DNA from: Alphaproteobacteria bacterium
GTDB taxonomy: Bacteria > Pseudomonadota > Alphaproteobacteria > UBA7887
Direction of reading: 5' to 3'
DNA length: 64,000 bases
NCBI GenBank assembly: GCA_965214495.1
Contig: OZ243958.1
Span: 22,372 to 86,371 of the forward strand
In this document: positions 15,309 through 38,642 of the stretch, in pieces
Numbering within the stretch: position 1 is the stretch's first letter
Layout of the letters: each line of letters starts with the position of its first letter
Program-made: the position numbers and the translations under genes
The notes under the pieces: model-generated
The model's input: only the letters and a program-made list of their open reading frames with translations
Told to the model about the DNA's origin: nothing
Databases searched by the model: none

Positions 15309-16030
15309 ATGGAATCTCCGATCGTACCGCGTCTTGGCCAATTGAAGCGGTTCTACGCTCTGTTGAGTTCGATCGAGGGACGGTTGAAGGGAACGCGCCG
15401 GCTGTCCGATTGCTCCGGTCGTATGCCGTGGCCCAAACGGGGCGTTTATTTCTTTTTCGAACCCGGTGAAGTCCGCACCGACAGCGGCGGCGGGCCGCGC
15501 GAGTGGTGCGGGTAGGTACACATGCCCTGAAGGCCGGCTCCGGCGCCACGCTCTGGGATCGTCTGTCGCAACACCGGGGACATGCGGGTAGCGGCGGTGG
15601 CAACCATCGCGGATCGATATTCAGGCTTATTGCAGGAACCGTACTGATGGGGAGGGACGGCCTCGATTGCCCGACCTGGGACAACGGTCTCGGGACCGCG
15701 CGGCCCGACGTTCGAGGCCGCGAGAAGCGTCTGGAGAGGGCCGTCAGCAAAGTGATCGGTGACATGCCGTTTCTATGGCTCGCCGTCGGGGACGACCCGG
15801 GTCCGGGCAGTCTGCGCGGATATATCGAGAGAAACGCGATCGCGCTCCTCAGTAACTACGGGAAACGAACCATCGACCCTCCCTCGCGTTTGTGGCTTGG
15901 CCGCCATTGCGACCGCGAGAAGGTGAGAGCTGCCGGGATGTGGAATTCCAACCATGTCGATGAGGGCTGCGATACGGCGTTCCTCGACACATTGGAGCGT
16001 TCGATTCAGCGAGTGGGGGAGACGAAATGA
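15309..16030 (+). pseudogene. GIY-YIG-like protein, frameshifted near 15500
   Basis: RGVYFFFEPGE (ORF 15231-15515) continues as VVRVGTHAL...TLWDRLSQHRG...NHRGSIFR...YIERNAIALL (ORF 15503-16030); shift inside ccgcgcgag. Confidence 0.65.
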
Positions 16031-28362: not shown

Positions 28363-30955
28363 ATGACTCCCGGTTTCCAAGTCGATTGGGAACAGTTGCT
28401 GCTGGTCTTTCTGCACGATCCGATCGACAAGGCGCTCGACATCAGGGGGCACGAGGCGCGCGCCGCGCGCTACGCCTCGACGGCGCTGGGGCGGACGGTT
28501 CGCCGCGAGGAGATGAAATCGACCGCGGCGCTCGCCGATCAATTGGCGGCGATCGCCGAACGGGTGCCGATGCCAACCGCGGGGGTTGGAGGTCGGCGCG
28601 CGGTTGCGCCCGCGAACGGAACGCTGACGGTCAACCATCCCGTCAGCGGAGAAGCGGGCGAGATCGATTGCCAACCCGTTGACGAAGCACGGATCGACCG
28701 GGCGGTCGCGGGGATCGTCGACGGGTGCGACACCCCCAGGCAACGCTTTCTCGCCCTCTGGCGTCTCCTGCCGGAGCGCGTCGAGGAGGCGTTCGGCGCC
28801 TGGATAACCCGGTTGCCGGCAGATACGCGGGTTCCGGACCACTCGCTCGTCAGCCATGCCGATATTGCCGCCGGGATCTGGGCCAGCCGCCAAAGCGTTC
28901 ACGGCGGGGCCTACCTTCTCTTTCGCGTTGGGGCCGGTGCAGACGTTCATCGAAGCCGCCCGTTCGGTGCGCGATCTGTGGACAGGCAGCGCCATCCTGT
29001 CGTGGCTCGCCTTCACGGCAATGCGACCGGTCATCGATTCGCTCGGTCCGACCTCGTTTGTCTACCCGTCGTTGAGCGGCAACCCGACGATGGATCTGTG
29101 GTTGCGGAGAGTTGCGGGAATCGACGGCGTTCCGATGCCGGAGCTGGAGGCACGCAAAAGCCCCTCGCTGCCGAACCGCTTCATCGCGGTGGTTCCCTGG
29201 GGAGCGAACGGCACCGATGCCAAGCGGTTGGCCGAGCAATGCGAGCGCTCGGTGCGGGAAGCCTGGAAGACGTCGGTCGCCGCCGTGCGCGGAGAACTCG
29301 CGCCGGAGCTGGCGGCAATCTGCCCGGACTGGGACCGGTTGTGGTCCGCGCAGACGGCCGATTTCTTCGAGGTCAGGACGACGGTGGTGCCGGAGCGCGC
29401 CCTCGACGACGAAACGATGGCGCGGTTGATCGGCGGCCGACCGTTCGACGAGGTCTGGCCCGACGCTGCCGCGATTCGGGCCCTTTCAAGCGCGATCCCG
29501 AGCGCCGACCGACCGTCCTACCGGCAAGACGCTGCCGGGCAGTGGCAGGCGCAATTGGAACTATCAGCCCGCGTCATGGACGCGAATCGCGCGATCCGCA
29601 AGGTGCCGGCAAACGGGGGAGGTGGCGATACGAGTGCGATGTCGCCGCCCAAATGCAGCCTGTTCGGCTCCTGGGAGCAGATGGGCCCGGCGAGTCTTCG
29701 AGAATCCGCATCGTTCTGGGACAACGCCGCCTCCCGGCTGAACGTGGACGGCGTGAGGCTGCGGACAGGGGAGCGTCTATGCGCTGTCGCGCTGGCAAAG
29801 CGGTTTGCGGGGCCCGCGTTCCTCGCCGGCGAGTTCGCTCTCGACCGCGCAAGTATGCGCTTCCCGGACACCGCGACGGTCTCGGCTGCGACATGGCTGC
29901 GCGAAGCGGGCATCGATCCCGACGCCGTTCGATCGACCTCTGGCGGGCGTTGGAGCGGGCGGTGGCTTCACGGTTCCGATGGCGAGGAGGAGCCCCCGCC
30001 GCGCGGTGTTGCGGCGAGGATCGAGGAGGCCGTGCGGGATCGAGGCAGACCGCCATCGTATTTCGCCGTTCTGAAGATGGACGGCGACGATATCGGCAGC
30101 TGGCTGCGCGGCGAGCGGTCTCCGCCGCTGAAGGAGGTGATGCATCCCGGGATCGTTACCTGGTTCCAGGGCATTGGCGGGACGGCGGTCGAAGCCGCCC
30201 TGGCCGCGCGCCGGCCCGTCGGTCCGGCCCTGCACGCGTCGATCAGCGAGATGCTCGGCGCGTTCGCGGCGCGCATTGCGCCGGAGATCGTGCGGCAGCA
30301 CGACGGGACGGTGATCTATTCCGGCGGCGACGACCTGCTCGCCTTGCTGCCCTCGGCGCGCGCCGTCGCCTGTGCGCAGGCGCTGAGGCAGGCGTTCCGC
30401 AGCGGGGCCGATGGCACCGCCTGGTGCGGGATGGGAACCCGCGCCACCGTATCGGCGGGCATCGCCTATGTACATCACATGGAGGATCTGCGCCTTGCGC
30501 TCCGGGCGGCGCGAGAGGCTGAAGCCCGGGCCAAGGCGGAAGGCAAGGACGCACTGCATCTGTACTTCATGCGCCGTTCGGGCGAAAATGCAGGCGCGAC
30601 CGTCGACTGGCCGCTGACGCCATGGTTCACCGAACTGACCGAGTTGTTCGCCTGCGACGCCAGCAGCCGCTGGACCTATCGGCTGCGGTCCGAGCAACCG
30701 GTTCTCGCAGGCCCGCATCTCCCTCCCGAGGCGGTCTCCGCAGAGATCCGCCGGCTGGGTGACCGCATCGATGATCGGCGTTGGGACGAACACGCTCTTC
30801 GCGCCGGCTGTTCCGCCGGCGAACTGATCCGGCGGTGGTGGGAACGCTACCGCGACGCCTTGCGCCGGCGGACGGCGATCGACGACGATTCGCTGCGCTC
30901 GTTCGTTACTCTCTGCCAGGGCGCAGCGTTCGTCGCCAGAGGCGGCGATGGATAG
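28363..30955 (+). pseudogene. cas10: Type III-B Cas10/Cmr2, frameshifted near 28915-28925
   Basis: N-part VFLHDPIDKAL...LPADTRVPDHS...AYLL; C-part in another frame SFALGPVQTFIEAARSVRDLWTGS, PSLPNRF, LKMDGDDIG, IYSGGDDLL (GGDD intact). Confidence 0.92.
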
Positions 30956-32036
30956 GTCGAACGGGACGGCGGCCGCGCCCGCGAACCGCCTGTTTCTCCA
31001 TATCGAGCCGCTCGATACGCTGTTCTTCCGCGACGCCCGCCCGTTCGATCCGGCGTCCCGGGCGGCGTCGGGCCTGCCGAGGCCGCAAACCCTCGCCGGC
31101 GCGCTACGCACCGCGATGCTCCGCGAGGCCGGAGTCGATCTGGACGCCGTGGCCGGGGGCGTGCGTCAGGGGCGGGGTTTCCAGGACGCCGCCGCGGCCG
31201 CGGGCGCCCTCGGCGGTGCCATCGGCGCGGTCCGGTTTGCCGGGCCCTGGTTCGCCCGGGACGAAAAACCCTTGTTTCCGGCCCCGGCGACGCTCAAACG
31301 GGAGCGGGAGAGCAAGGCCATCGTCCGCCTCGATCCCCTGAACAGCGCGTTGCCGGGGTGGGCCGCGCCGCAAGACGGCATGGTACCGTTGTGGCGCACC
31401 GGCCGCGGGCGCCTCGAGAACGCTGCGGGTTATCTCACATCGGACGGCATGACGCGGTTCCTGGACGGCGGTGTCCCCAACGAGATCGTTCCGGGTTCCG
31501 AGCTATTCGGCCATGACGACCGGACGGGCATCGCCGTGGACCCCGGCCGCGCAACCGCTGCGGAGGGCATGATCTATGCGGTCCGCATGCTGGCCCTGCG
31601 CCCCGGCGTGCGCCTGTGCGCCGAGCTTGCCGGGCCGGCCGAAGCATTGGACCTTTTCCCGTCGTTAGGCGCCCTCGTCGCGCTCGGCGGGGAGGGGCGG
31701 CGCGCGGTGGCGGTGCCGGCCGGGAAGCCGCCGACATTGCCGTCCGCCGATGCAGCGGACCGACGGCTGCTGGTGCTGACCGCGCCGGCGCCGCTCGACG
31801 GCTGGCTCCCGCGCGGACTGGCGCTCGCGGCGGCGGCCGTGCCCGGCCACGAAGCCGTGTCGGGTTGGGACCTCGCCCGCGGCGGACCCAAGCCTAACCG
31901 TTTCATGGTGCCGGCCGGGACGGTGTACTTTCTCAAGCCCGGCGCTGTTCTCCCGGATTCGCGATTGCCTGTCGATCCCGACGATCGCGCGCTCGGCTGG
32001 GGCAGCTATCTGGAGGGAAGCTGGACATATGCCTGA
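30948..32036 (+). CDS. cmr3: Type III-B Cas5-group protein Cmr3
   Basis: IEPLDTLFFRDARPF, PRPQTLAGALR, LGGEGR, SGWDLARGGPKP, VPAGTVYF, LGWG. Confidence 0.93.
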   Translation: MDRSNGTAAAPANRLFLHIEPLDTLFFRDARPFDPASRAASGLPRPQTLAGALRTAMLREAGVDLDAVAGGVRQGRGFQDAAAAAGALGGAIGAVRFAGPWFARDEKPLFPAPATLKRERESKAIVRLDPLNSALPGWAAPQDGMVPLWRTGRGRLENAAGYLTSDGMTRFLDGGVPNEIVPGSELFGHDDRTGIAVDPGRATAAEGMIYAVRMLALRPGVRLCAELAGPAEALDLFPSLGALVALGGEGRRAVAVPAGKPPTLPSADAADRRLLVLTAPAPLDGWLPRGLALAAAAVPGHEAVSGWDLARGGPKPNRFMVPAGTVYFLKPGAVLPDSRLPVDPDDRALGWGSYLEGSWTYA

Positions 32037-32622
32037 CTCCGCGTTGTTGTTCATTCACTGCCTGACCGGCCTGCACCCCGGCAGCGGCACGGCACTCGGC
32101 GTCGTCGACCTGCCAGTGCAGCGCGAGCGCCACACCCGGTGGCCGATCGTTCCGGGTTCGTCGCTCAAAGGCGTGTTGGAGGACAGCTTGCTGCGCGGCT
32201 ATCGGGTGCTGGAGCTCGTGGGACAGTTTCGTCTGTTCGACCGGCGCATCGACAGCGGCTCGATCGACCCGGAGGTGCCGGCCGTCGTCGCCTTGCGTGA
32301 GCGGCTTGGGACCAGTAGCGACTTCGGTATCGACCCGAAAAGCAAGCGTCTGACGGCGCCGCGAGAACTGGCAGCCCGCCTGCTCAACGAACTGGGCGAC
32401 CCGGTGGGCCGACAACTGCTCGGATTCGACGGCTCGGGTGACCGGATCCGCGCAAGGACGCGGAATCACAGCATCCTGATCCACGGCTTCGAGGCGTCGG
32501 CGCCGTCGGACGCCCCTTCCCTCGAAGCGCTATACGACGATCTAGAGCGCTTGCTTTGCGCGGCCGCGCCCGAAGCGGAGGAAATGCTTCTCCAAGCCAA
32601 GCGTCTCTCTTTTGACGGCTGA
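32029..32622 (+). CDS. Chimera: Cmr4 N-terminus (~50 aa) fused in frame to a HEPN RNase C-terminus (TIGR02710-like)
   Basis: LHPGSGTALGVVDLPVQRERHTRWPIVPGSSLKGVL is the Cmr4 start; at ~32179 it switches to DSLLRGYRVLELVGQFRL...RNHSILIHGF (HEPN-type RN..H motif). Confidence 0.8.
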   Translation: MPDSALLFIHCLTGLHPGSGTALGVVDLPVQRERHTRWPIVPGSSLKGVLEDSLLRGYRVLELVGQFRLFDRRIDSGSIDPEVPAVVALRERLGTSSDFGIDPKSKRLTAPRELAARLLNELGDPVGRQLLGFDGSGDRIRARTRNHSILIHGFEASAPSDAPSLEALYDDLERLLCAAAPEAEEMLLQAKRLSFDG

Positions 32623-32627
32623 CGGGA

Positions 32628-33665
32628 ATGCCGACCCTCTATGTGACCGAGCCGGGTGCCGTGGTGCGCCGCCGGGCGGGGTCGATCGTCGTCACCCTGG
32701 ACGAGGATCCCGACGGACCTGGGCCGTTGCCGAAAGGTCGGCGGCGCCTGATCGAGGTGGAGCCGCATCGACTGGAAATGATTGGCCTGATGGGCCGGGC
32801 GCACATCACCGCCGACGCGACGCGGCTCTGCCTGGAACAGGGGATCGCGGTGTCGTGGTTCACGCGTGGCGGCGACTTTCTCGGACGGCTGGTGCCGGAA
32901 CTGTCGCGAACGGCGGACCTTCGTCTGCGTCAGTTCCGGCTTGCCGACAACCCGGAGGCGGCGCTCGACCTTGCGCGCGCGTTCATCGACGCCAAGCTGC
33001 GAAACGCGGCCGCGATGATCCGCACCGTCCGGTCGAACCGCCCGCGAGAGGAGCGTTTCGCCGAGGTCATCGCCCGCCTGCCGCGCTTGCGGGAACAGCT
33101 TGCCGGCGCCCGGGCGCGCGACACGGTCATGGGGATCGAAGGCGACGGCACGCGGCGCTACTTCTCGGTCCTCGGGCTTGCGTTTTCCGGCCCGGTGGGT
33201 TTCGAGTCGCGGCAGCGGCGGCCGCCGCCGGACCCCGCCAACGCGCTTCTCTCGCTCGGCTACGTCCTGCTGGCGAACGCCTTGGCGAGCTTGCTCGAGG
33301 CGCGCGGTTTCGATCCCTATCTGGGATTCCTCCACACGGTCCGGTCGGGAAGGCCGAGCCTGGCGCTCGACCTGATGGAGGAACTGCGTCATCCGGTCGT
33401 GGATCGGTTCGTGCTTCGTCTCTGCAATCGGCGGCAGTTGACGCCGGAGCATTTCGAGGCCGACGTCGAGCGGGGCGGGATACGCCTGGTGCGGGACGGC
33501 TTTCGGCGCTTCCTCCGCGAATGGGAGCGCTATCTGGACGCGCCGATGGCGGGGATCGGCGGCGGATTGACGGTTGAACGGGCGATCGCGCGGCAGGCGG
33601 ATCGGCTCGCCGCGCGGGTTCGCGGCAAGGACGCATACGAGCCGCTCCTGTTGAACGGCGCGTGA
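32628..33665 (+). CDS. cas1: CRISPR-associated endonuclease Cas1
   Basis: MPTLYVTEPGA, MGIEG...RYF, RRPPPDPANALLSLGY, DPYLGFLH, SLALDLMEELR (catalytic E, H, D/E present). Confidence 0.96.
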   Translation: MPTLYVTEPGAVVRRRAGSIVVTLDEDPDGPGPLPKGRRRLIEVEPHRLEMIGLMGRAHITADATRLCLEQGIAVSWFTRGGDFLGRLVPELSRTADLRLRQFRLADNPEAALDLARAFIDAKLRNAAAMIRTVRSNRPREERFAEVIARLPRLREQLAGARARDTVMGIEGDGTRRYFSVLGLAFSGPVGFESRQRRPPPDPANALLSLGYVLLANALASLLEARGFDPYLGFLHTVRSGRPSLALDLMEELRHPVVDRFVLRLCNRRQLTPEHFEADVERGGIRLVRDGFRRFLREWERYLDAPMAGIGGGLTVERAIARQADRLAARVRGKDAYEPLLLNGA

Positions 33666-33674
33666 GGAGATGCG

Positions 33675-33959
33675 GTGGCAAGGTTCGTGGTCTGCTACGA
33701 CGTTTCGGACGACCGGCGACGGCGAAAGATTGCCGAGGTGCTCGACGCCTATGGCGACCGCGTCCAGGAAAGCGTGTTCGAGCTTCCGGTCGACGGCGTC
33801 TTGATGGACGAATGCGTGGCCGAGCTTGCGCAGGCGATTGGCCGCGACGATCATCTGGCGATATATCGGCTCTGTAAGGCGTGCGACGGCGCGCGACGTT
33901 ATCTCGGGGCGGCCGCCGACGTGCCGCGCATCGGCGAGGAGGAGGTTTTCATCGTTTGA
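33675..33959 (+). CDS. cas2: CRISPR-associated Cas2
   Basis: VVCYDVSDDRRRRKIAEVL, RVQESVFE, YRLCKAC; GAGGAG RBS. Confidence 0.95.
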   Translation: MARFVVCYDVSDDRRRRKIAEVLDAYGDRVQESVFELPVDGVLMDECVAELAQAIGRDDHLAIYRLCKACDGARRYLGAAADVPRIGEEEVFIV

Positions 33960-34156
33960 CCGGTGTATCGTATCCGCCGAGTGTCGATAACGCGGGGGAG
34001 GGTTACGACTCGACATTGGGCGTTGATTGGTCTAGAAAATCCGGGATACAGGCTGCTCCCGGCGAAGACGGTTCCGGCTTTTCCGGGGATCGCGCGGCGA
34101 GGTTACGACGGAGAAGGAGACAACACCTTGATATGACAGTCGGTTTTACGACCGCA
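33960..34156 (+). promoter_or_regulatory. CRISPR leader
   Basis: Non-coding ~200 bp between cas2 and the first perfect repeat; degenerate repeat is at the far end of the array. Confidence 0.7.
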
Positions 34157-37100
34157 GCCGAGCACGCCGCCCCGAAAAGGAGGGGATTGAAACTCGTTCG
34201 CGGCGATGCGGTCGTCGGCTACCTGTTCTCGCCGAGCACGCCGCCCCGAAAAGGAGGGGATTGAAACTCCGTGCAGATAGCGCCCGCGAGGAAGCGGATG
34301 CGGCGGCGCCGAGCACGCCGCCCCGAAAAGGAGGGGATTGAAACGCGGCAAATCGCCGCGCGGAGGATTTGCGGGAGAGGGTGCCGAGCACGCCGCCCCG
34401 AAAAGGAGGGGATTGAAACGCCGTTGAGCGTGGACCCGGCAGCGGACGGGTTGCTCGCGCCGAGCACGCCGCCCCGAAAAGGAGGGGATTGAAACTGGAG
34501 GGTCTTGAGGCCGGGATCATACAGCATCTCGATATCGCCGAGCACGCCGCCCCGAAAAGGAGGGGATTGAAACGACGGCCTCGCCAGCGTCCAGGCCGGC
34601 GGCTGATGGCCGAAGCCGAGCACGCCGCCCCGAAAAGGAGGGGATTGAAACCTTGCGGCGCCCTCGGTTGTGCCGTCGGCGGCGTTCACCTGCCGAGCAC
34701 GCCGCCCCGAAAAGGAGGGGATTGAAACCAAGCCCCGCCTGGCCCCGCCTCGCCAGGCCTCGCCGCGATGCCGAGCACGCCGCCCCGAAAAGGAGGGGAT
34801 TGAAACATCAGTCCTTTCTGCGACCCTCCGACCGCGACGTCCACCCGCCGAGCACGCCGCCCCGAAAAGGAGGGGATTGAAACTCGCGGCCCAGTTCATT
34901 GCCGAGCTGCCGAATCGCCTCCAGGCCGAGCACGCCGCCCCGAAAAGGAGGGGATTGAAACCCGGCGTCGATCACGACGTCCCCGCCAGCGGTCAGCGTG
35001 AGCCGAGCACGCCGCCCCGAAAAGGAGGGGATTGAAACCCGGCGTCGATCACGACGTCCCCGCCAGCGGTCAGCGTGAGCCGAGCACGCCGCCCCGAAAA
35101 GGAGGGGATTGAAACCCGGAAAAATCGACGAACTGCCGCGGCCGCGGCCAATGGTGCCGAGCACGCCGCCCCGAAAAGGAGGGGATTGAAACGGCATGCC
35201 GATCAGCTGCCCCTGCGGGGTCTGCGCGTCCAGGCCGAGCACGCCGCCCCGAAAAGGAGGGGATTGAAACGAATGGAGCGCTCGGACACGTCATAGGCGG
35301 TTGCGCTGTGCCGAGCACGCCGCCCCGAAAAGGAGGGGATTGAAACGCGCAACAACTGCCTGCGCGGCGCGAAAGAGTATGAGGAGCCGAGCACGCCGCC
35401 CCGAAAAGGAGGGGATTGAAACCGCAGCGCGCACGCGGCGCGCCAGGCCACGGTCGGTCGTCGCCGAGCACGCCGCCCCGAAAAGGAGGGGATTGAAACA
35501 TGAAGCGCAGGCCCGTCGTCAGCGAGTCGTAGTTGACGGCCGAGCACGCCGCCCCGAAAAGGAGGGGATTGAAACCACGCTGACCGCCGGCGGGGACGTC
35601 GTGATCGACGCCGGGGCCGAGCACGCCGCCCCGAAAAGGAGGGGATTGAAACCGGTTGCCCGCCGGGTCGTTCGGGAGGCTGTCCTTGCGGGCCGAGCAC
35701 GCCGCCCCGAAAAGGAGGGGATTGAAACGCCGAAGACGGCGCCGACGCCGCCCGCGCGCGAGTGGACGGCCGAGCACGCCGCCCCGAAAAGGAGGGGATT
35801 GAAACCCGATGAATTTCAGCGCGGTCGAGATCGAGGGCGTGCCCATGCCGAGCACGCCGCCCCGAAAAGGAGGGGATTGAAACAGCTCCAATTTCGGCGT
35901 CACCCTCGAGCTGCGCCATGCGCCGAGCACGCCGCCCCGAAAAGGAGGGGATTGAAACATGTTCGATCCTGCGCCGGGCCGGGCGCAACCTCGTCCGCCG
36001 AGCACGCCGCCCCGAAAAGGAGGGGATTGAAACATTCGAGGACTGACGCCATGGCCACTCTCGTCGACCTCTAGCCGAGCACGCCGCCCCGAAAAGGAGG
36101 GGATTGAAACGCCGAAGAACCGCTCGCGGTAACGGTCGCGCAGGGCCACGAGGCCGAGCACGCCGCCCCGAAAAGGAGGGGATTGAAACGGCGGATTCGG
36201 CCTATGCCGGCGCCCTGCGGGATCGGCGCGCCGAGCACGCCGCCCCGAAAAGGAGGGGATTGAAACGTCCAACGCGCCTATGCCCGCACCCAGCGGGTTG
36301 GTATGGCGCCGAGCACGCCGCCCCGAAAAGGAGGGGATTGAAACGTATCAGGTGCCGGATTCTGGGCACGTTCCGAGCTTGCCGAGGCCGAGCACGCCGC
36401 CCCGAAAAGGAGGGGATTGAAACATCGACCTGCGCTTGCGAGAGGCCCGCTGCGTTCCCCAGGCCGAGCACGCCGCCCCGAAAAGGAGGGGATTGAAACC
36501 GGCGTCACCCGCCAGATCGAAACCGACGAACGCACGCTGGGCCGAGCACGCCGCCCCGAAAAGGAGGGGATTGAAACTTCAGGCATCACCCGGGCGGCGC
36601 TGTCGGCTCTTCTGAACGGCCGAGCACGCCGCCCCGAAAAGGAGGGGATTGAAACCCTTCGAACTGCACGTCCACCACGGCCCCGATGACCTGGGCCGAG
36701 CACGCCGCCCCGAAAAGGAGGGGATTGAAACCGGTGCCGGGCAGAACGACGGTGACGACAACCGCAGTCGCCGAGCACGCCGCCCCGAAAAGGAGGGGAT
36801 TGAAACCCTTTCGCGGCCTCGGCCTCCTCGCCGACATCGAGCGCGGCCGCCGAGCACGCCGCCCCGAAAAGGAGGGGATTGAAACGCGCGTTCGCGTCAG
36901 CCCCTGCATCCAGCAACGCCGTGCCGAGCACGCCGCCCCGAAAAGGAGGGGATTGAAACGTCACGCTCAGCGGCGAGGATATGCGCGAAGGGCTCACCTG
37001 TGCCGAGCACGCCGCCCCGAAAAGGAGGGGATTGAAACCTCGATTCTCTTGTTCGTGTTGAAATTCATGGACGAAAGAATGAGCCGAGCACGCCGCCCCG

Positions 37101-37504
37101 AAAAGGAGGGGATTGAAACCGCCGGGGAAATGGTCACGGTCCGATCCGCCGGATCGTCACGCCGAGCACGCCGCCCCGAAAAGGAGGGGATTGAAACGCG
37201 ACGCTGAACTCGTCCTGACCGCGCCACGGGTAGGACGCCGAGCACGCCGCCCCGAAAAGGAGGGGATTGAAACCGCCACCGCAGCGCGGCCTTGTGCGTG
37301 GAAAGGGTGATGCCGAGCACGCCGCCCCGAAAAGGACGGGATTGAAACACCTCGAAGCCGTTGACGCGCATGATGTATTTGCTCGTGACCGCCGAGCACG
37401 CCGCCCCGAAAAGGAGGGGATTGAAACGTCGTGACGTAATGCTCGCGCGGCCCCGGCAGGACCCCGAGCCGAGCACGCCGCCTCGAAATGGAGGGGATCG
37501 GAGT
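34157..37504 (+). CRISPR. CRISPR array: 44 repeats of 37 bp (GCCGAGCACGCCGCCCCGAAAAGGAGGGGATTGAAAC), 43 spacers of ~37-44 bp
   Basis: Counted by hand; 3' ATTGAAAC handle, CCCC/GGGG hairpin, one SNP repeat (37312-37348), degenerate terminal repeat 37468-37504. Confidence 0.98.
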
Positions 37505-37688
37505 GAACGGCGCCGTCCAACTTCACGGTAGGATTGCAGGGCTCGTCGAGCTTGCCCCCCCCCCCCCTCCCCAGATCGAGGGGGTTAAACGCGACACGGC
37601 CGTTGCCGCGGCACGGACGCGACGATCCGAGTGAACGTCTCGGTCGGCGTCGCTTTTGCGCGGACGGTGCGGTTGTCCCTGCCGACGG

Positions 37689-38642
37689 TTACGGCGAGGT
37701 GATTTCGATTTGCCCGAGACCGAAGACGGTTCCCTTGCCCACATGGAGCCAATGGCCGGCGACAACGAGCGGCCACAACTCGCCCGCACCCTCCGGCAGG
37801 TCGAGAGAGCCGGCGACGCCGTGCATGTCGATCTCCCGGCGCTGGGTGCCGGACCAGCGGACGAAATCGCTCTGACCGCCCCGCCAGGCGGCGCAGGGGA
37901 CACGCGCCGCCGAAGCGAGAACCGCGTCAACCAGCATGCGCGCCCCGTCGATTTCGTCCCCGCCTCCCAGAGCGACGAGGCGGCGCACCGCCGCCAGGGC
38001 AATGTCGGCGAACGTCGGCCGATCGATCAGTCGGCCCCGCCTGAGAAGCCTGAGAGGGACTCTGAAATGCAGTCGAGCGCCGCCTTTCGTCAACGTTTCC
38101 CGGCGAATGGCATCGGCGGCCGCGCGCAGCGGCCAACGCCGTTCTTCGGACACGGCGGCCGAACGGCTGTCGAGCCAAAGCGTTCGTCTGACCCGGAACG
38201 GCTCCCGAACCGGCCCCAAACCCATGCCCGATGCGACGTCCCAGGCTTGGACGAGCACCTCCTCGAAACGTCGTGCCGGGCCGATCAGGAACCAATCCAG
38301 CGCAGGCGCGAATTTCGGATCCACGGGGGCGGGCCGGATCAGATATAACGGCGTGCGCTCCACGCCGCGCGGTGCTGCTCGTCTTCGACCCTCGAACACC
38401 CGTGCATATGCCTCCGTGTCGAGGTGCTTCAACGCCCGGCCCCAGATGCCCCGGAGCATCGGCGCGGTGGCTCGGACACCGCCCGTGTCGAGCACCAGAC
38501 GGCGCGGAGCAAGTTCGATCCGGTCGAGCAAACACAGGAGCCGCTGTTCCAGGCTCGGCGGCGATGCTGTTCCCCGATCGGCGTCGGCTTCGTCTCCGCT
38601 ACCTGATAGGACTTCCTTACCCATCCCGGGGTTATCCGGCAT
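37689..38642 (-). CDS. cas6: Cas6 crRNA-processing endoribonuclease
   Basis: MLRGIWGRAL, FRVPLRL, RWSGTQ, C-terminal G-rich loop HVGKGTVFGLG; convergent on the array; start uncertain. Confidence 0.88.
   Translation of the reverse strand: MPDNPGMGKEVLSGSGDEADADRGTASPPSLEQRLLCLLDRIELAPRRLVLDTGGVRATAPMLRGIWGRALKHLDTEAYARVFEGRRRAAPRGVERTPLYLIRPAPVDPKFAPALDWFLIGPARRFEEVLVQAWDVASGMGLGPVREPFRVRRTLWLDSRSAAVSEERRWPLRAAADAIRRETLTKGGARLHFRVPLRLLRRGRLIDRPTFADIALAAVRRLVALGGGDEIDGARMLVDAVLASAARVPCAAWRGGQSDFVRWSGTQRREIDMHGVAGSLDLPEGAGELWPLVVAGHWLHVGKGTVFGLGQIEITSP

Follow-up and report, generated by a model that had tools for sequence, protein, structure and literature searches.

A type III-B CRISPR array rich in perfect self spacers beside a Cmr effector operon truncated by deletion

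The stretch of alphaproteobacterial DNA considered here (the window, 64,000 nt in length) corresponds to bases 22372-86371 of a genome of 3,261,019 bp that is assembled in a single contig. At positions 34157-37504, on the + strand, it contains a CRISPR array in which 43 spacers, each measuring 37-44 nt, alternate with 44 repeats of 37 nt. Short-query BLASTN of all the spacers revealed that 15 of the 43 (spacers 1, 9, 10, 13, 17, 26, 27, 29, and 31-37) match the organism's own chromosome outside the array at 100% identity and over their full length. A first-pass annotation of the window had recognized pieces of atpD, gyrB, and an aminotransferase gene in three spacers and had proposed this search; the three assignments hold in every respect, the coordinates being exact, the peptides readable from the spacers and the chromosomal matches perfect and full-length, and the effect turns out to be far larger than the three spacers claimed. 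The effector operon next to the array has been truncated by a deletion, and we consider it probable that the self spacers were acquired indiscriminately and have been tolerated after the loss of the effector.

Each perfect self match has an E-value of 1e-15 to 1e-18 against the organism's own genome, and the same 15 sites were recovered by a separate search with the whole array as query, while the best genome matches of the remaining 28 spacers span 13-19 nt and are at chance level. Summed over the 15 self matches, 602 nt show zero mismatches, which limits the divergence of the donor to less than 0.5% (95% confidence); in other species of the genus or family the same self spacers are matched at only 84-98%, with values of 98, 95, and 93% for the atpD spacer 33 in other species of the genus. 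Comparison of the whole array with 50,697 phage records and with 72,556 plasmid records by blastn yielded a single chance-level match in each collection (E = 7e-3 and E = 2e-3, respectively), and a phage or plasmid origin of the spacers was rejected on this ground. Judged by sequence identity, the self spacers are copies of the organism's own genes and not of phage or plasmid versions of them. They are given below with their chromosomal counterparts (protospacers), whose genes are named by the Pfam assignment of the covering open reading frames (ORFs). Sense and antisense refer to a CRISPR RNA (crRNA) read from the + strand relative to the mRNA, and X2-X4 denote sequencing runs, described further below, in which a unitig spans the junction between repeat and spacer.

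Spacer 1, window 34194..34230 (+): genome 2731584-2731620, NosR/NirI-like gene (FMN_bind and Fer4_5); sense; junction unitigs in runs X3 and X4.
Spacer 9, window 34807..34846 (+): genome 3053336-3053375, class-V aminotransferase (PF00266); antisense.
Spacer 10, window 34884..34924 (+): genome 1010675-1010715, CTP synthase pyrG; antisense; junction unitig (next repeat) in run X2.
Spacer 13, window 35116..35155 (+): genome 714985-715024, NAD-specific glutamate dehydrogenase; sense.
Spacer 17, window 35423..35462 (+): genome 1356052-1356091, 1054-residue PD-(D/E)XK nuclease (AddB-like); antisense.
Spacer 26, window 36111..36152 (+): genome 1253432-1253473, 379-residue middle gene, of unassigned family, in an efflux operon between OEP and AcrB genes; antisense, the strand being called from operon context and codon GC.
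Spacer 27, window 36190..36229 (+): genome 3183951-3183990, junction of a LAB_N gene and a PMT_2 (ArnT-like) glycosyltransferase gene; antisense.
Spacer 29, window 36345..36386 (+): genome 1716631-1716672, DUF87/HerA-like ATPase, a lower-GC gene; sense.
Spacer 31, window 36500..36540 (+): genome 1972904-1972944, ORF of unassigned family beside an IS110 transposase; no orientation assigned.
Spacer 32, window 36578..36618 (+): genome 2167656-2167696, XRE-type HTH gene, 2.4 kb from the spacer 33 site; sense.
Spacer 33, window 36656..36694 (+): genome 2170033-2170071, ATP synthase beta subunit atpD (PF00006, PF02874); antisense.
Spacer 34, window 36732..36769 (+): genome 681081-681118, MMPL transporter; antisense; junction unitig in run X3.
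Spacer 35, window 36807..36848 (+): genome 216134-216175, dihydroorotate dehydrogenase pyrD; sense.
Spacer 36, window 36886..36922 (+): genome 103506-103542, ankyrin-repeat protein gene; antisense; junction unitig in run X3.
Spacer 37, the oldest self spacer, window 36960..37001 (+): genome 315549-315590, gyrB (PF00204, PF00986, Toprim); sense; junction unitig in run X3.

The repeat unit of the array, GCCGAGCACGCCGCCCCGAAAAGGAGGGGATTGAAAC, has the 3' end ATTGAAAC and recurs as near-identical, regular direct repeats around unique spacers, the sole duplicate being spacer 11, identical to spacer 12; copy 42 carries one change and the terminal copy (44) is degenerate. Since cas2 lies upstream of the array and the degenerate repeat at its far end, the + strand is taken as the crRNA strand and spacer 1 as the newest; transcription of the array in the opposite direction would merely swap the sense and antisense counts. 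A 4-bp CCCC/GGGG stem stands immediately 5' of the 8-nt tag AUUGAAAC of the repeat. The folding energy of the repeat is no better than that of shuffled sequences, and only the conserved position of the stem, not the fold energy, enters the argument on the repeat hairpin. Genome-wide, the repeat occurs at no second locus; it is absent from 22 other genomes of the family, even with up to 3 mismatches allowed, and neither an exact 24-mer of it in the contig collection of other genomes nor its 24-nt core among metagenome contigs gave any match. The repeats, the adjacent cas1 and cas2, a repeat family shared with related loci, and a Cas6 together with the hairpin by the tag identify positions 34157-37504, on sequence criteria, as the CRISPR array of a type III-B locus, whose other parts are as follows.

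Cas10/Cmr2, 28363..30955 (+): TIGR02577, E = 1.5e-62 on the C-terminal part; N-terminal HD motif FLHDPIDK and GGDD cyclase motif.
Cmr3, 30948..32036 (+): TIGR01888, E = 3.8e-33; open frame, not decayed.
Chimera of 197 residues, read as the deletion scar, 32029..32622 (+): Cmr4 residues ~1-55 continue in frame into the C-terminal part of a TIGR02710 CARF protein, with the junction near 32176-32190.
Cas1, 345 residues, 32628..33665 (+): TIGR00287, E = 1e-75, matched end to end; no reverse-transcriptase or Cas4 domain.
Cas2, 94 residues, 33675..33959 (+): TIGR01573, E = 2e-15.
Leader, 33960..34156 (+): assigned by its position between cas2 and the first repeat; relatives place the array after cas2 in the same orientation.
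Cas6, 317 residues, 37689..38642 (-), downstream of the array: PF10040, E = 2.5e-10.

We compared this locus with nine loci from diverse metagenome-assembled genomes whose Cas1 is 53-79% identical. Eight of the nine (L050-L056 and L058 among them) share the order Cmr2-Cmr3-Cmr4-Cmr5-Cmr6/1-CARF(TIGR02710)-Cas1-Cas2-array, and the repeats of eight are 37 nt long and belong to the family GCCCCG-N7-AGGGGATTGAAAC, the same family as that of the window array. In the chimera, residues 6-55 correspond to positions 2-52 of the 283-position model TIGR02580 and residues 51-156 to positions 263-364 of the 384 in TIGR02710, the C-terminal part being HEPN-like with the motif RNHSILIHG. The Cmr4 start and the CARF tail that are fused in the window lie ~4.1 kb apart in eight of the nine relatives, and in L050, the closest one, this stretch is occupied by Cmr4 (295 residues), Cmr5, a Cmr6-Cmr1 fusion (747 residues), and the CARF protein. 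By this comparison the window locus has lost ~4.1 kb; the greater part of Cmr4, the whole of Cmr5 and Cmr6/Cmr1, and the CARF domain went with it, the breakpoints being joined in frame. No complete Cmr effector is encoded in cis: residues ~1-55 of Cmr4 are left, Cmr5 and Cmr6/Cmr1 are gone, and Cmr2 is frameshifted. In the assembly this last gene changes reading frame through one extra base near 28920-28925, as seen in a three-frame reading, at a place where six relatives read ...GGAYL(T/S)FALGPVQ... in one frame. The Cmr2 of L058 (1368-4047) likewise occupies two frames, the break lying no more than a few codons from the window frameshift, and this could be a coincidence, a shared error-prone site or a real hotspot.

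The remaining genes are well preserved. Cas1 keeps 103 of the 106 columns that are invariant in the nine relatives, the three changes being conservative, and Cas2 keeps 34 of 34; Cas6 is the sole PF10040 match in the genome and is 39-60% identical to the Cas6 proteins of the related loci. Profile matches, the gene order of the relatives and these invariant columns together bear out the earlier statement that cas1, cas2, and cas6 are intact and Cmr is broken. What is left of the effector has hardly drifted either, with the remnant Cmr3 deviating at 1 of 73 columns invariant in eight relatives and Cmr2 at 6 of 168, which is inside the range of the intact relatives; the barely decayed Cmr2 and Cmr3 and the perfect spacer identity suggest that the effector loss is recent. 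A search of the leader for the sigma-70 consensus found none, which is uninformative for this organism.

The relatives offer a comparison with arrays that still have their effector. L050-L056 and L058 resemble the window locus in gene order, in their PF10040 Cas6 and in the 37-nt repeat family ending in ATTGAAAC, and the window locus differs from them by the ~4.1 kb missing from the effector operon, by the frameshifted Cmr2 and by the self-rich array. Perfect self spacers number 0 of 47 in L050, 1 of 46 in L055, and 0 of 18 in L058, so that the 15 of 43 in the window stand against 1 of 111 in the three relatives pooled (p = 8e-9). As a positive control, the search method used for the relatives recovered all 15 self sites in the organism's own genome. 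Partial self matches amounted to one in L050 (30/41) and two, at one place, in L055, and the single perfect self spacer of L055 lies in cobT in the sense, hence harmless, orientation.

A further control comes from the other CRISPR arrays of the same genome. A k-mer scan found six arrays, the two I-E arrays being counted separately; a candidate at genome position 1439087 with a 51-nt period proved not to be a CRISPR and was left out of the counts, and array A2 was counted without one interval of 96 nt. Besides the window array they are the following.

I-G array, genome 1287280-1306384: 262 repeats and 261 spacers, with Cas3g, Cas8g2, Cas7g, and Cas4g/Cas1g; 0 self matches of any kind.
Two I-E-type arrays: 29-nt repeats near Cas3 and Cas1 matches, 69 spacers; 0 perfect self matches.
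II-C array after Cas9-Cas1, genome 2699104-2705886 (Cas9, E = 5.7e-155): 34 spacers; 0 perfect self matches and one weak 26/30 match.
Type IV-A-like array, genome 979093-983020: 36-nt repeats and 57 spacers of 30 nt; 10 perfect self matches and 2 partial ones.

Against the pooled 0 of 364 spacers of the I-G, I-E, and II-C arrays, whose effectors cut DNA, the Fisher test gives p = 2e-16 for the window array and p = 1e-9 for the type IV-A-like array, the self share being 35% in the III-B remnant array and 18% in the type IV-A-like one.

This second self-rich array has features of its own. It lies 155 bp from a DinG/Csf4-Csf2-Cas6-like-Csf3 operon without cas1, and the protospacer of its spacer 34 is at window positions 15546-15576. 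The tetranucleotide GCAC occurs within 7 nt of the 3' flank of 8 of its 10 self protospacers (background 1.9%, p = 8e-13), and spacer length plus motif offset is constant at about 32 nt. Its repeats and spacers are equal in length to those of the II-C array, with which it shares one identical spacer (genome 2704371-2704400). The 3' GCAC motif is RYAC-like and presumably resembles the protospacer adjacent motif (PAM) of a Cas9. The matching lengths, the shared spacer, and the 3' GCAC motif suggest that the type IV-A-like array is fed by the II-C adaptation module. Feeding of a VI-B array by II-C machinery has been published (PMC8092290), type IV-A-like systems reportedly lack a nuclease (10.1101/2023.06.23.546257), and the literature search found no case of a type IV array fed by II-C.

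As to the window array, its self spacers bear no mark of selection for strand or site. The crRNA would be antisense to the mRNA for 8 spacers (9, 10, 17, 26, 27, 33, 34, and 36) and sense for 6 (1, 13, 29, 32, 35, and 37), one being without a call. The probability of at least 8 antisense spacers among 14 is 3e-4 under the ~15% antisense share of interference-proficient Streptococcus thermophilus and 0.31 under the 47% of its delta-csm1-6 derivative. Scoring of strand bias and flanking motifs, which had also been proposed at the outset, thus yielded neither: no flanking motif shared by the 15 protospacers was seen, nor any likeness of their 5' flanks to the crRNA tag. The self protospacers are spread uniformly over the chromosome (Kolmogorov-Smirnov p = 0.92), and the 15 sites are not visibly enriched in rRNA genes, tRNA genes or the starts of genes. 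The first-pass annotation had offered regulation by antisense crRNAs as an alternative; the split of 8 antisense to 6 sense fits unselected recording and argues against such a role. We saw no sign of prophage-linked primed amplification of the type described in PMC7708048, given the uniform spread, the use of both strands, the missing flank motif and the housekeeping nature of the genes, prophages not having been annotated explicitly. Three close protospacer pairs lie within 2.5 kb where 0.39 are expected (p = 0.007, both self-rich arrays pooled), which hints at spacers taken from discrete DNA fragments or at local breakage.

Written from spacer 1 to spacer 43 with self as 1, the array reads 1000000011001000100000000110101111111000000. 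The oldest six spacers (38-43) are non-self and are followed by a block, spacers 26-37, in which 10 of 12 are self (permutation p = 0.002); the other five self spacers (17, 13, 10, 9, and 1) are scattered in the newer part, and the newest spacer of all is self. The earlier impression that such hits span both ends of the array is therefore right for the young end, where spacer 1 is self, but not for the old end, where spacers 38-43 are not.

The array could also be followed in raw reads. Four runs of one study (X1-X4) contain 44-56% of the sampled words of the locus, no RNA run being among those listed, and both flanks are present in their unitigs. Junctions between a repeat and a self spacer occur in unitigs for spacers 1 (X3, X4), 10 (X2), and 34, 36, and 37 (X3), with no base differences listed; unitig cover is absent at 34455-34625 and 37191-37361 in all four runs and at 34284-34454 in three. 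These runs may be the source of the assembly, and they rule out a stitching artefact without being an independent replication. At window position 37555, the unitigs of three runs are one C shorter in a long C-run than the assembly, which therefore contains a homopolymer error.

The non-self spacers are less easily placed. In exact scans of IMG/VR, neither spacer 23 in full length nor the core of spacer 11, 38, or 42 had a match, and spacer 23 gave 0 matches among metagenome contigs. The sequence of spacer 23 (window 35884-35921) does occur inside a non-array contig of runs X1-X3 (loose ends at 35885 and 35923), which means that at least one non-self spacer has a co-occurring target. Spacers 11 (34962-35001) and 12 (35039-35078) are identical, and spacer 19 (35576-35615) is their reverse complement with a one-base shift and one mismatch, a pattern indicating that one foreign site was captured repeatedly and in both orientations. 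Spacers 27 (36190-36229, self) and 28 (36267-36307, non-self) share, by eye, the core CCTATGCC..GC.CCC.GCGGG, and they read as if they came from homologous genes of two different genomes. Spacer 6 (34574-34614, non-self) has 27-34-nt matches at 85-93% in four related genomes and at most 16 nt in the organism's own genome, and it may derive from a conserved gene of a related organism. The target of spacer 23 and the likeness of spacer 28 to self spacer 27 hint that DNA of neighbouring cells is present among the spacers. The possibility that the non-self spacers are diverged copies of the organism's own genes was rejected, since tblastx against its genome gave a best E of 0.02 and mostly arginine-rich out-of-frame noise.

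The array of the window is not the only place in the genome where Cmr genes occur. A complete Cmr1-2-3-4-5-6 operon with a TIGR02710 CARF gene, all frames open, lies at genome ~2111100-2118860 (L042 5116-12855, - strand), adjoining an IS66 fragment, with no array, Cas6, or Cas1 alongside. Its Cmr2 possesses the GGDD motif and has no HD domain. The module is 28-29% identical to the array's own Cmr2 and Cmr3 and is therefore not a recent copy of them. Relatives of this 2.11-Mb module occur in 4 of 400 other sampled genomes of the class, at five loci in all, and an array is missing from the surrounding ~17 kb at four of these. One relative has arrays on its flanks, their 37-nt repeats ending in GATTAAAC, and another stands next to a PF10040 Cas6 and a 37-nt repeat whose end, ATAGAAAC, equals the tag of the window array at 7 of 8 positions; the repeat ends of the relatives, AUAGAAAC or GAUUAAAC, are of the same class as the window tag AUUGAAAC. 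A third Cmr locus, at genome ~1394900-1400000 (L043 6889-11994), is broken and carries an IS4 insertion; it comprises a 165-residue Cmr4 fragment, two unassigned ORFs of 373 and 438 residues, the IS4 transposase, and a 266-residue Cmr6 fragment, and is 52-54% identical to the complete 2.11-Mb module. The search for another effector or another array with the same repeat thus brought a complete Cmr1-6 module but no second array. The description of the locus as an acquisition-only remnant with dead interference accordingly holds in cis, while a complete Cmr is present in trans and the acquisition-only state is a matter of inference.

The succession of events that we propose to account for these observations would begin with the destruction of the type III-B effector by the ~4.1-kb deletion, Cas1, Cas2, the leader, the array, and Cas6 being left intact. 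Cas1-Cas2 of this class would take any available DNA, the host chromosome included, with no need for a motif and in either orientation. Type III autoimmunity would normally remove the cells whose crRNA pairs with their own transcript; once the effector was lost, nothing would act on the crRNAs, and self spacers would be neutral and would accumulate while recording continues. We infer that acquisition of the self spacers followed or accompanied the effector loss, that their source was DNA rather than RNA, and that the 2.11-Mb Cmr module does not act on the crRNAs of the array. For this last point, the antisense guides against atpD and pyrG and the absence of strand bias speak against a toxic use of the crRNAs in trans, a deduction from 14 spacers.

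Several points weigh against this proposal. The genome apparently comes from community samples and the donor could have been sibling cells. Use of the array's crRNAs in trans by the 2.11-Mb module is plausible from the repeat and Cas6 associations of its relatives. The orientation test comprises 14 spacers, and for two of them the strand of the gene was called from context alone. The contrast between spacers 1-37 and spacers 38-43 is weak when taken alone (Fisher p = 0.08). Finally, the Cmr2 frameshift may be an assembly error, since a homopolymer error exists elsewhere in the assembly; the deletion does not depend on it, and the loss of Cmr4-6 stands apart from the frameshift.

The order of events might have been the reverse, with a harmful self spacer (36, 34, or 33, for instance) gained by a still intact locus, survival of the cells that deleted Cmr4-6, and accumulation of further self spacers thereafter, a sequence that is possible but that we hold to be doubtful. 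It agrees with the oldest self spacer, 37 (gyrB), being sense and so harmless and with the next ones including the antisense spacers 36, 34, and 33; loss of cas genes as an escape from self-targeting is described in the relevant passages of PMC7708048, and the sense self spacer of the intact relative indicates that such acquisition does occur in intact systems. Yet no sequence feature dates the deletion relative to spacers 33-37, and continued accumulation requires tolerance under either order. A different objection concerns the guides themselves, which could still be live: the HD-less Cmr at 2.11 Mb would load crRNAs made by the array's Cas6, and antisense guides would tune housekeeping mRNAs, or a standing autoimmunity would be held in check by an inhibitor, a ring nuclease, or low expression. 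That module is complete and open, has GGDD, and lacks an array and a Cas6 of its own, its relatives stand beside PF10040 Cas6 and 37-nt repeats whose tag in one case agrees at 7 of 8 positions, and the window array and Cas6 are the sole ones of that class in the genome. We nevertheless find this distinctly unlikely, given that strand bias is lacking (8:6) despite antisense guides against atpD and pyrG, that targets and positions look random and unchosen, that the trans module is so dissimilar to the array's Cmr2 and Cmr3, and that it might just as well be supplied by the I-G array, whose 262 repeats end in ATTGAAG.

The source of the captured DNA raises a separate question. Uptake of DNA from lysed clonal or conspecific neighbours would agree with the presence of other organisms in the runs that hold the locus, with the protospacer of spacer 23 on a non-array contig there, and with the excess of close protospacer pairs, which fits capture from discrete fragments; we regard it as unlikely, the 602 nt being free of mismatches and other species of the genus reaching only 84-98%, though own DNA and DNA of a clonal sibling are indistinguishable by sequence. 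Copying of spacers from RNA by a reverse transcriptase (RT), as in RT-Cas1 type III-B systems, would favour expressed genes, and most targets are indeed expressed housekeeping genes hit in both orientations, as reported for the type III-B system of Marinomonas (PMC5576922). This is highly improbable in view of the plain 345-residue Cas1, of the complete accounting of the ORFs from Cmr2 to the array, among which there is no RT (the search being of the locus only), and of targets such as the AddB-like nuclease, the XRE regulator, and the HerA-like ATPase, which are unlikely to be abundant transcripts. Mis-stitching of chromosomal fragments into the array during assembly deserves next to no credence: the assembly does contain at least one homopolymer-length error, at 37555, but every self spacer has normal length and is flanked by perfect repeats, and unitigs of several runs, possibly the source of the assembly, span the junctions of repeat and self spacer. 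Indiscriminate capture followed by tolerance remains the explanation that we prefer, and it has several implications. The array lends weight to the idea that the host chromosome is a major source for adaptation modules and that self is told from non-self mostly at the stage of interference rather than of acquisition; it would provide an unselected record of natural III-B Cas1-Cas2 capture, with no motif, in either orientation and over the whole genome. It is also a caution for the linking of hosts and viruses by spacers, since a perfect spacer match may lie in a housekeeping gene. With an intact Cmr present in trans, the locus is well suited to a search for the rules that pair crRNAs with effectors, or for a natural inhibitor of type III signalling. 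Should the 2.11-Mb Cmr depend on the array and its Cas6, which we hold to be unlikely, the eight antisense crRNAs, directed at atpD, pyrG, and efflux and envelope genes, would be live guides, and the locus would be a natural multi-gene type III knock-down or a case of autoimmunity survived through a brake on cyclic-oligoadenylate signalling.

Self-targeting spacers as such are well known. They make up 0.4% of spacers and occur in 18% of genomes (Stern et al. 2010, as cited in a passage of PMC6990116), and in the survey of Nobrega et al. 2020 (PMC7708048) affected genomes have on average 2.5 self spacers, with 63% of these in or near prophages, and 12% of affected genomes have incomplete or no cas genes, the extremes (85 and 162 self spacers) being due to primed, strand-biased type I-C acquisition around prophages. 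The surveyed loci and the window locus have in common perfect self spacers alongside cas loss; the window array differs by its 35% of self spacers, by genome-wide housekeeping sites, by the lack of strand bias and by belonging to type III-B. With the RT-Cas1 type III-B system of Marinomonas mediterranea (PMC5576922) the window locus shares a III-B array, spacers in either orientation and host genes among the targets, whereas M. mediterranea has an RT-Cas1 and the window locus has a plain 345-residue Cas1 and no RT. The literature search, made of listings and selected passages, found no natural case alike, supplementary tables lying outside its scope and possibly holding others.

The closest parallel is a laboratory one. 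According to the passages of Zhang et al. (NAR 2021, PMC8860593) on type III-A adaptation in S. thermophilus, Cas1-Cas2 suffice, no PAM is used, spacers enter in either orientation and are mostly from the host genome; the split between coding and template strand is 53/47 in the delta-csm1-6 strain and about 85/15 with interference, coding-strand spacers being non-functional, and the authors read it as counter-selection of self-targeting cells. Duplication of a repeat-spacer unit, also reported in that part of the paper, fits spacers 11 and 12 of the window. Like that of the delta-csm1-6 mutant, the window array is motif-free and contains host-derived spacers in both orientations, which is the interference-null pattern; in S. 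thermophilus the deletion was made in the laboratory, in type III-A, and its outcome read from deep-sequenced transient populations, whereas the window presents a natural deletion, in type III-B, with spacers fixed in an assembly. Self-targeting spacers and the laboratory mechanism are thus known, and what is unusual is the 35% scale, the genome-wide housekeeping sites, a III-B system without RT in the locus and the controls available within the genome, which make the window array a natural, internally controlled counterpart of the laboratory result.

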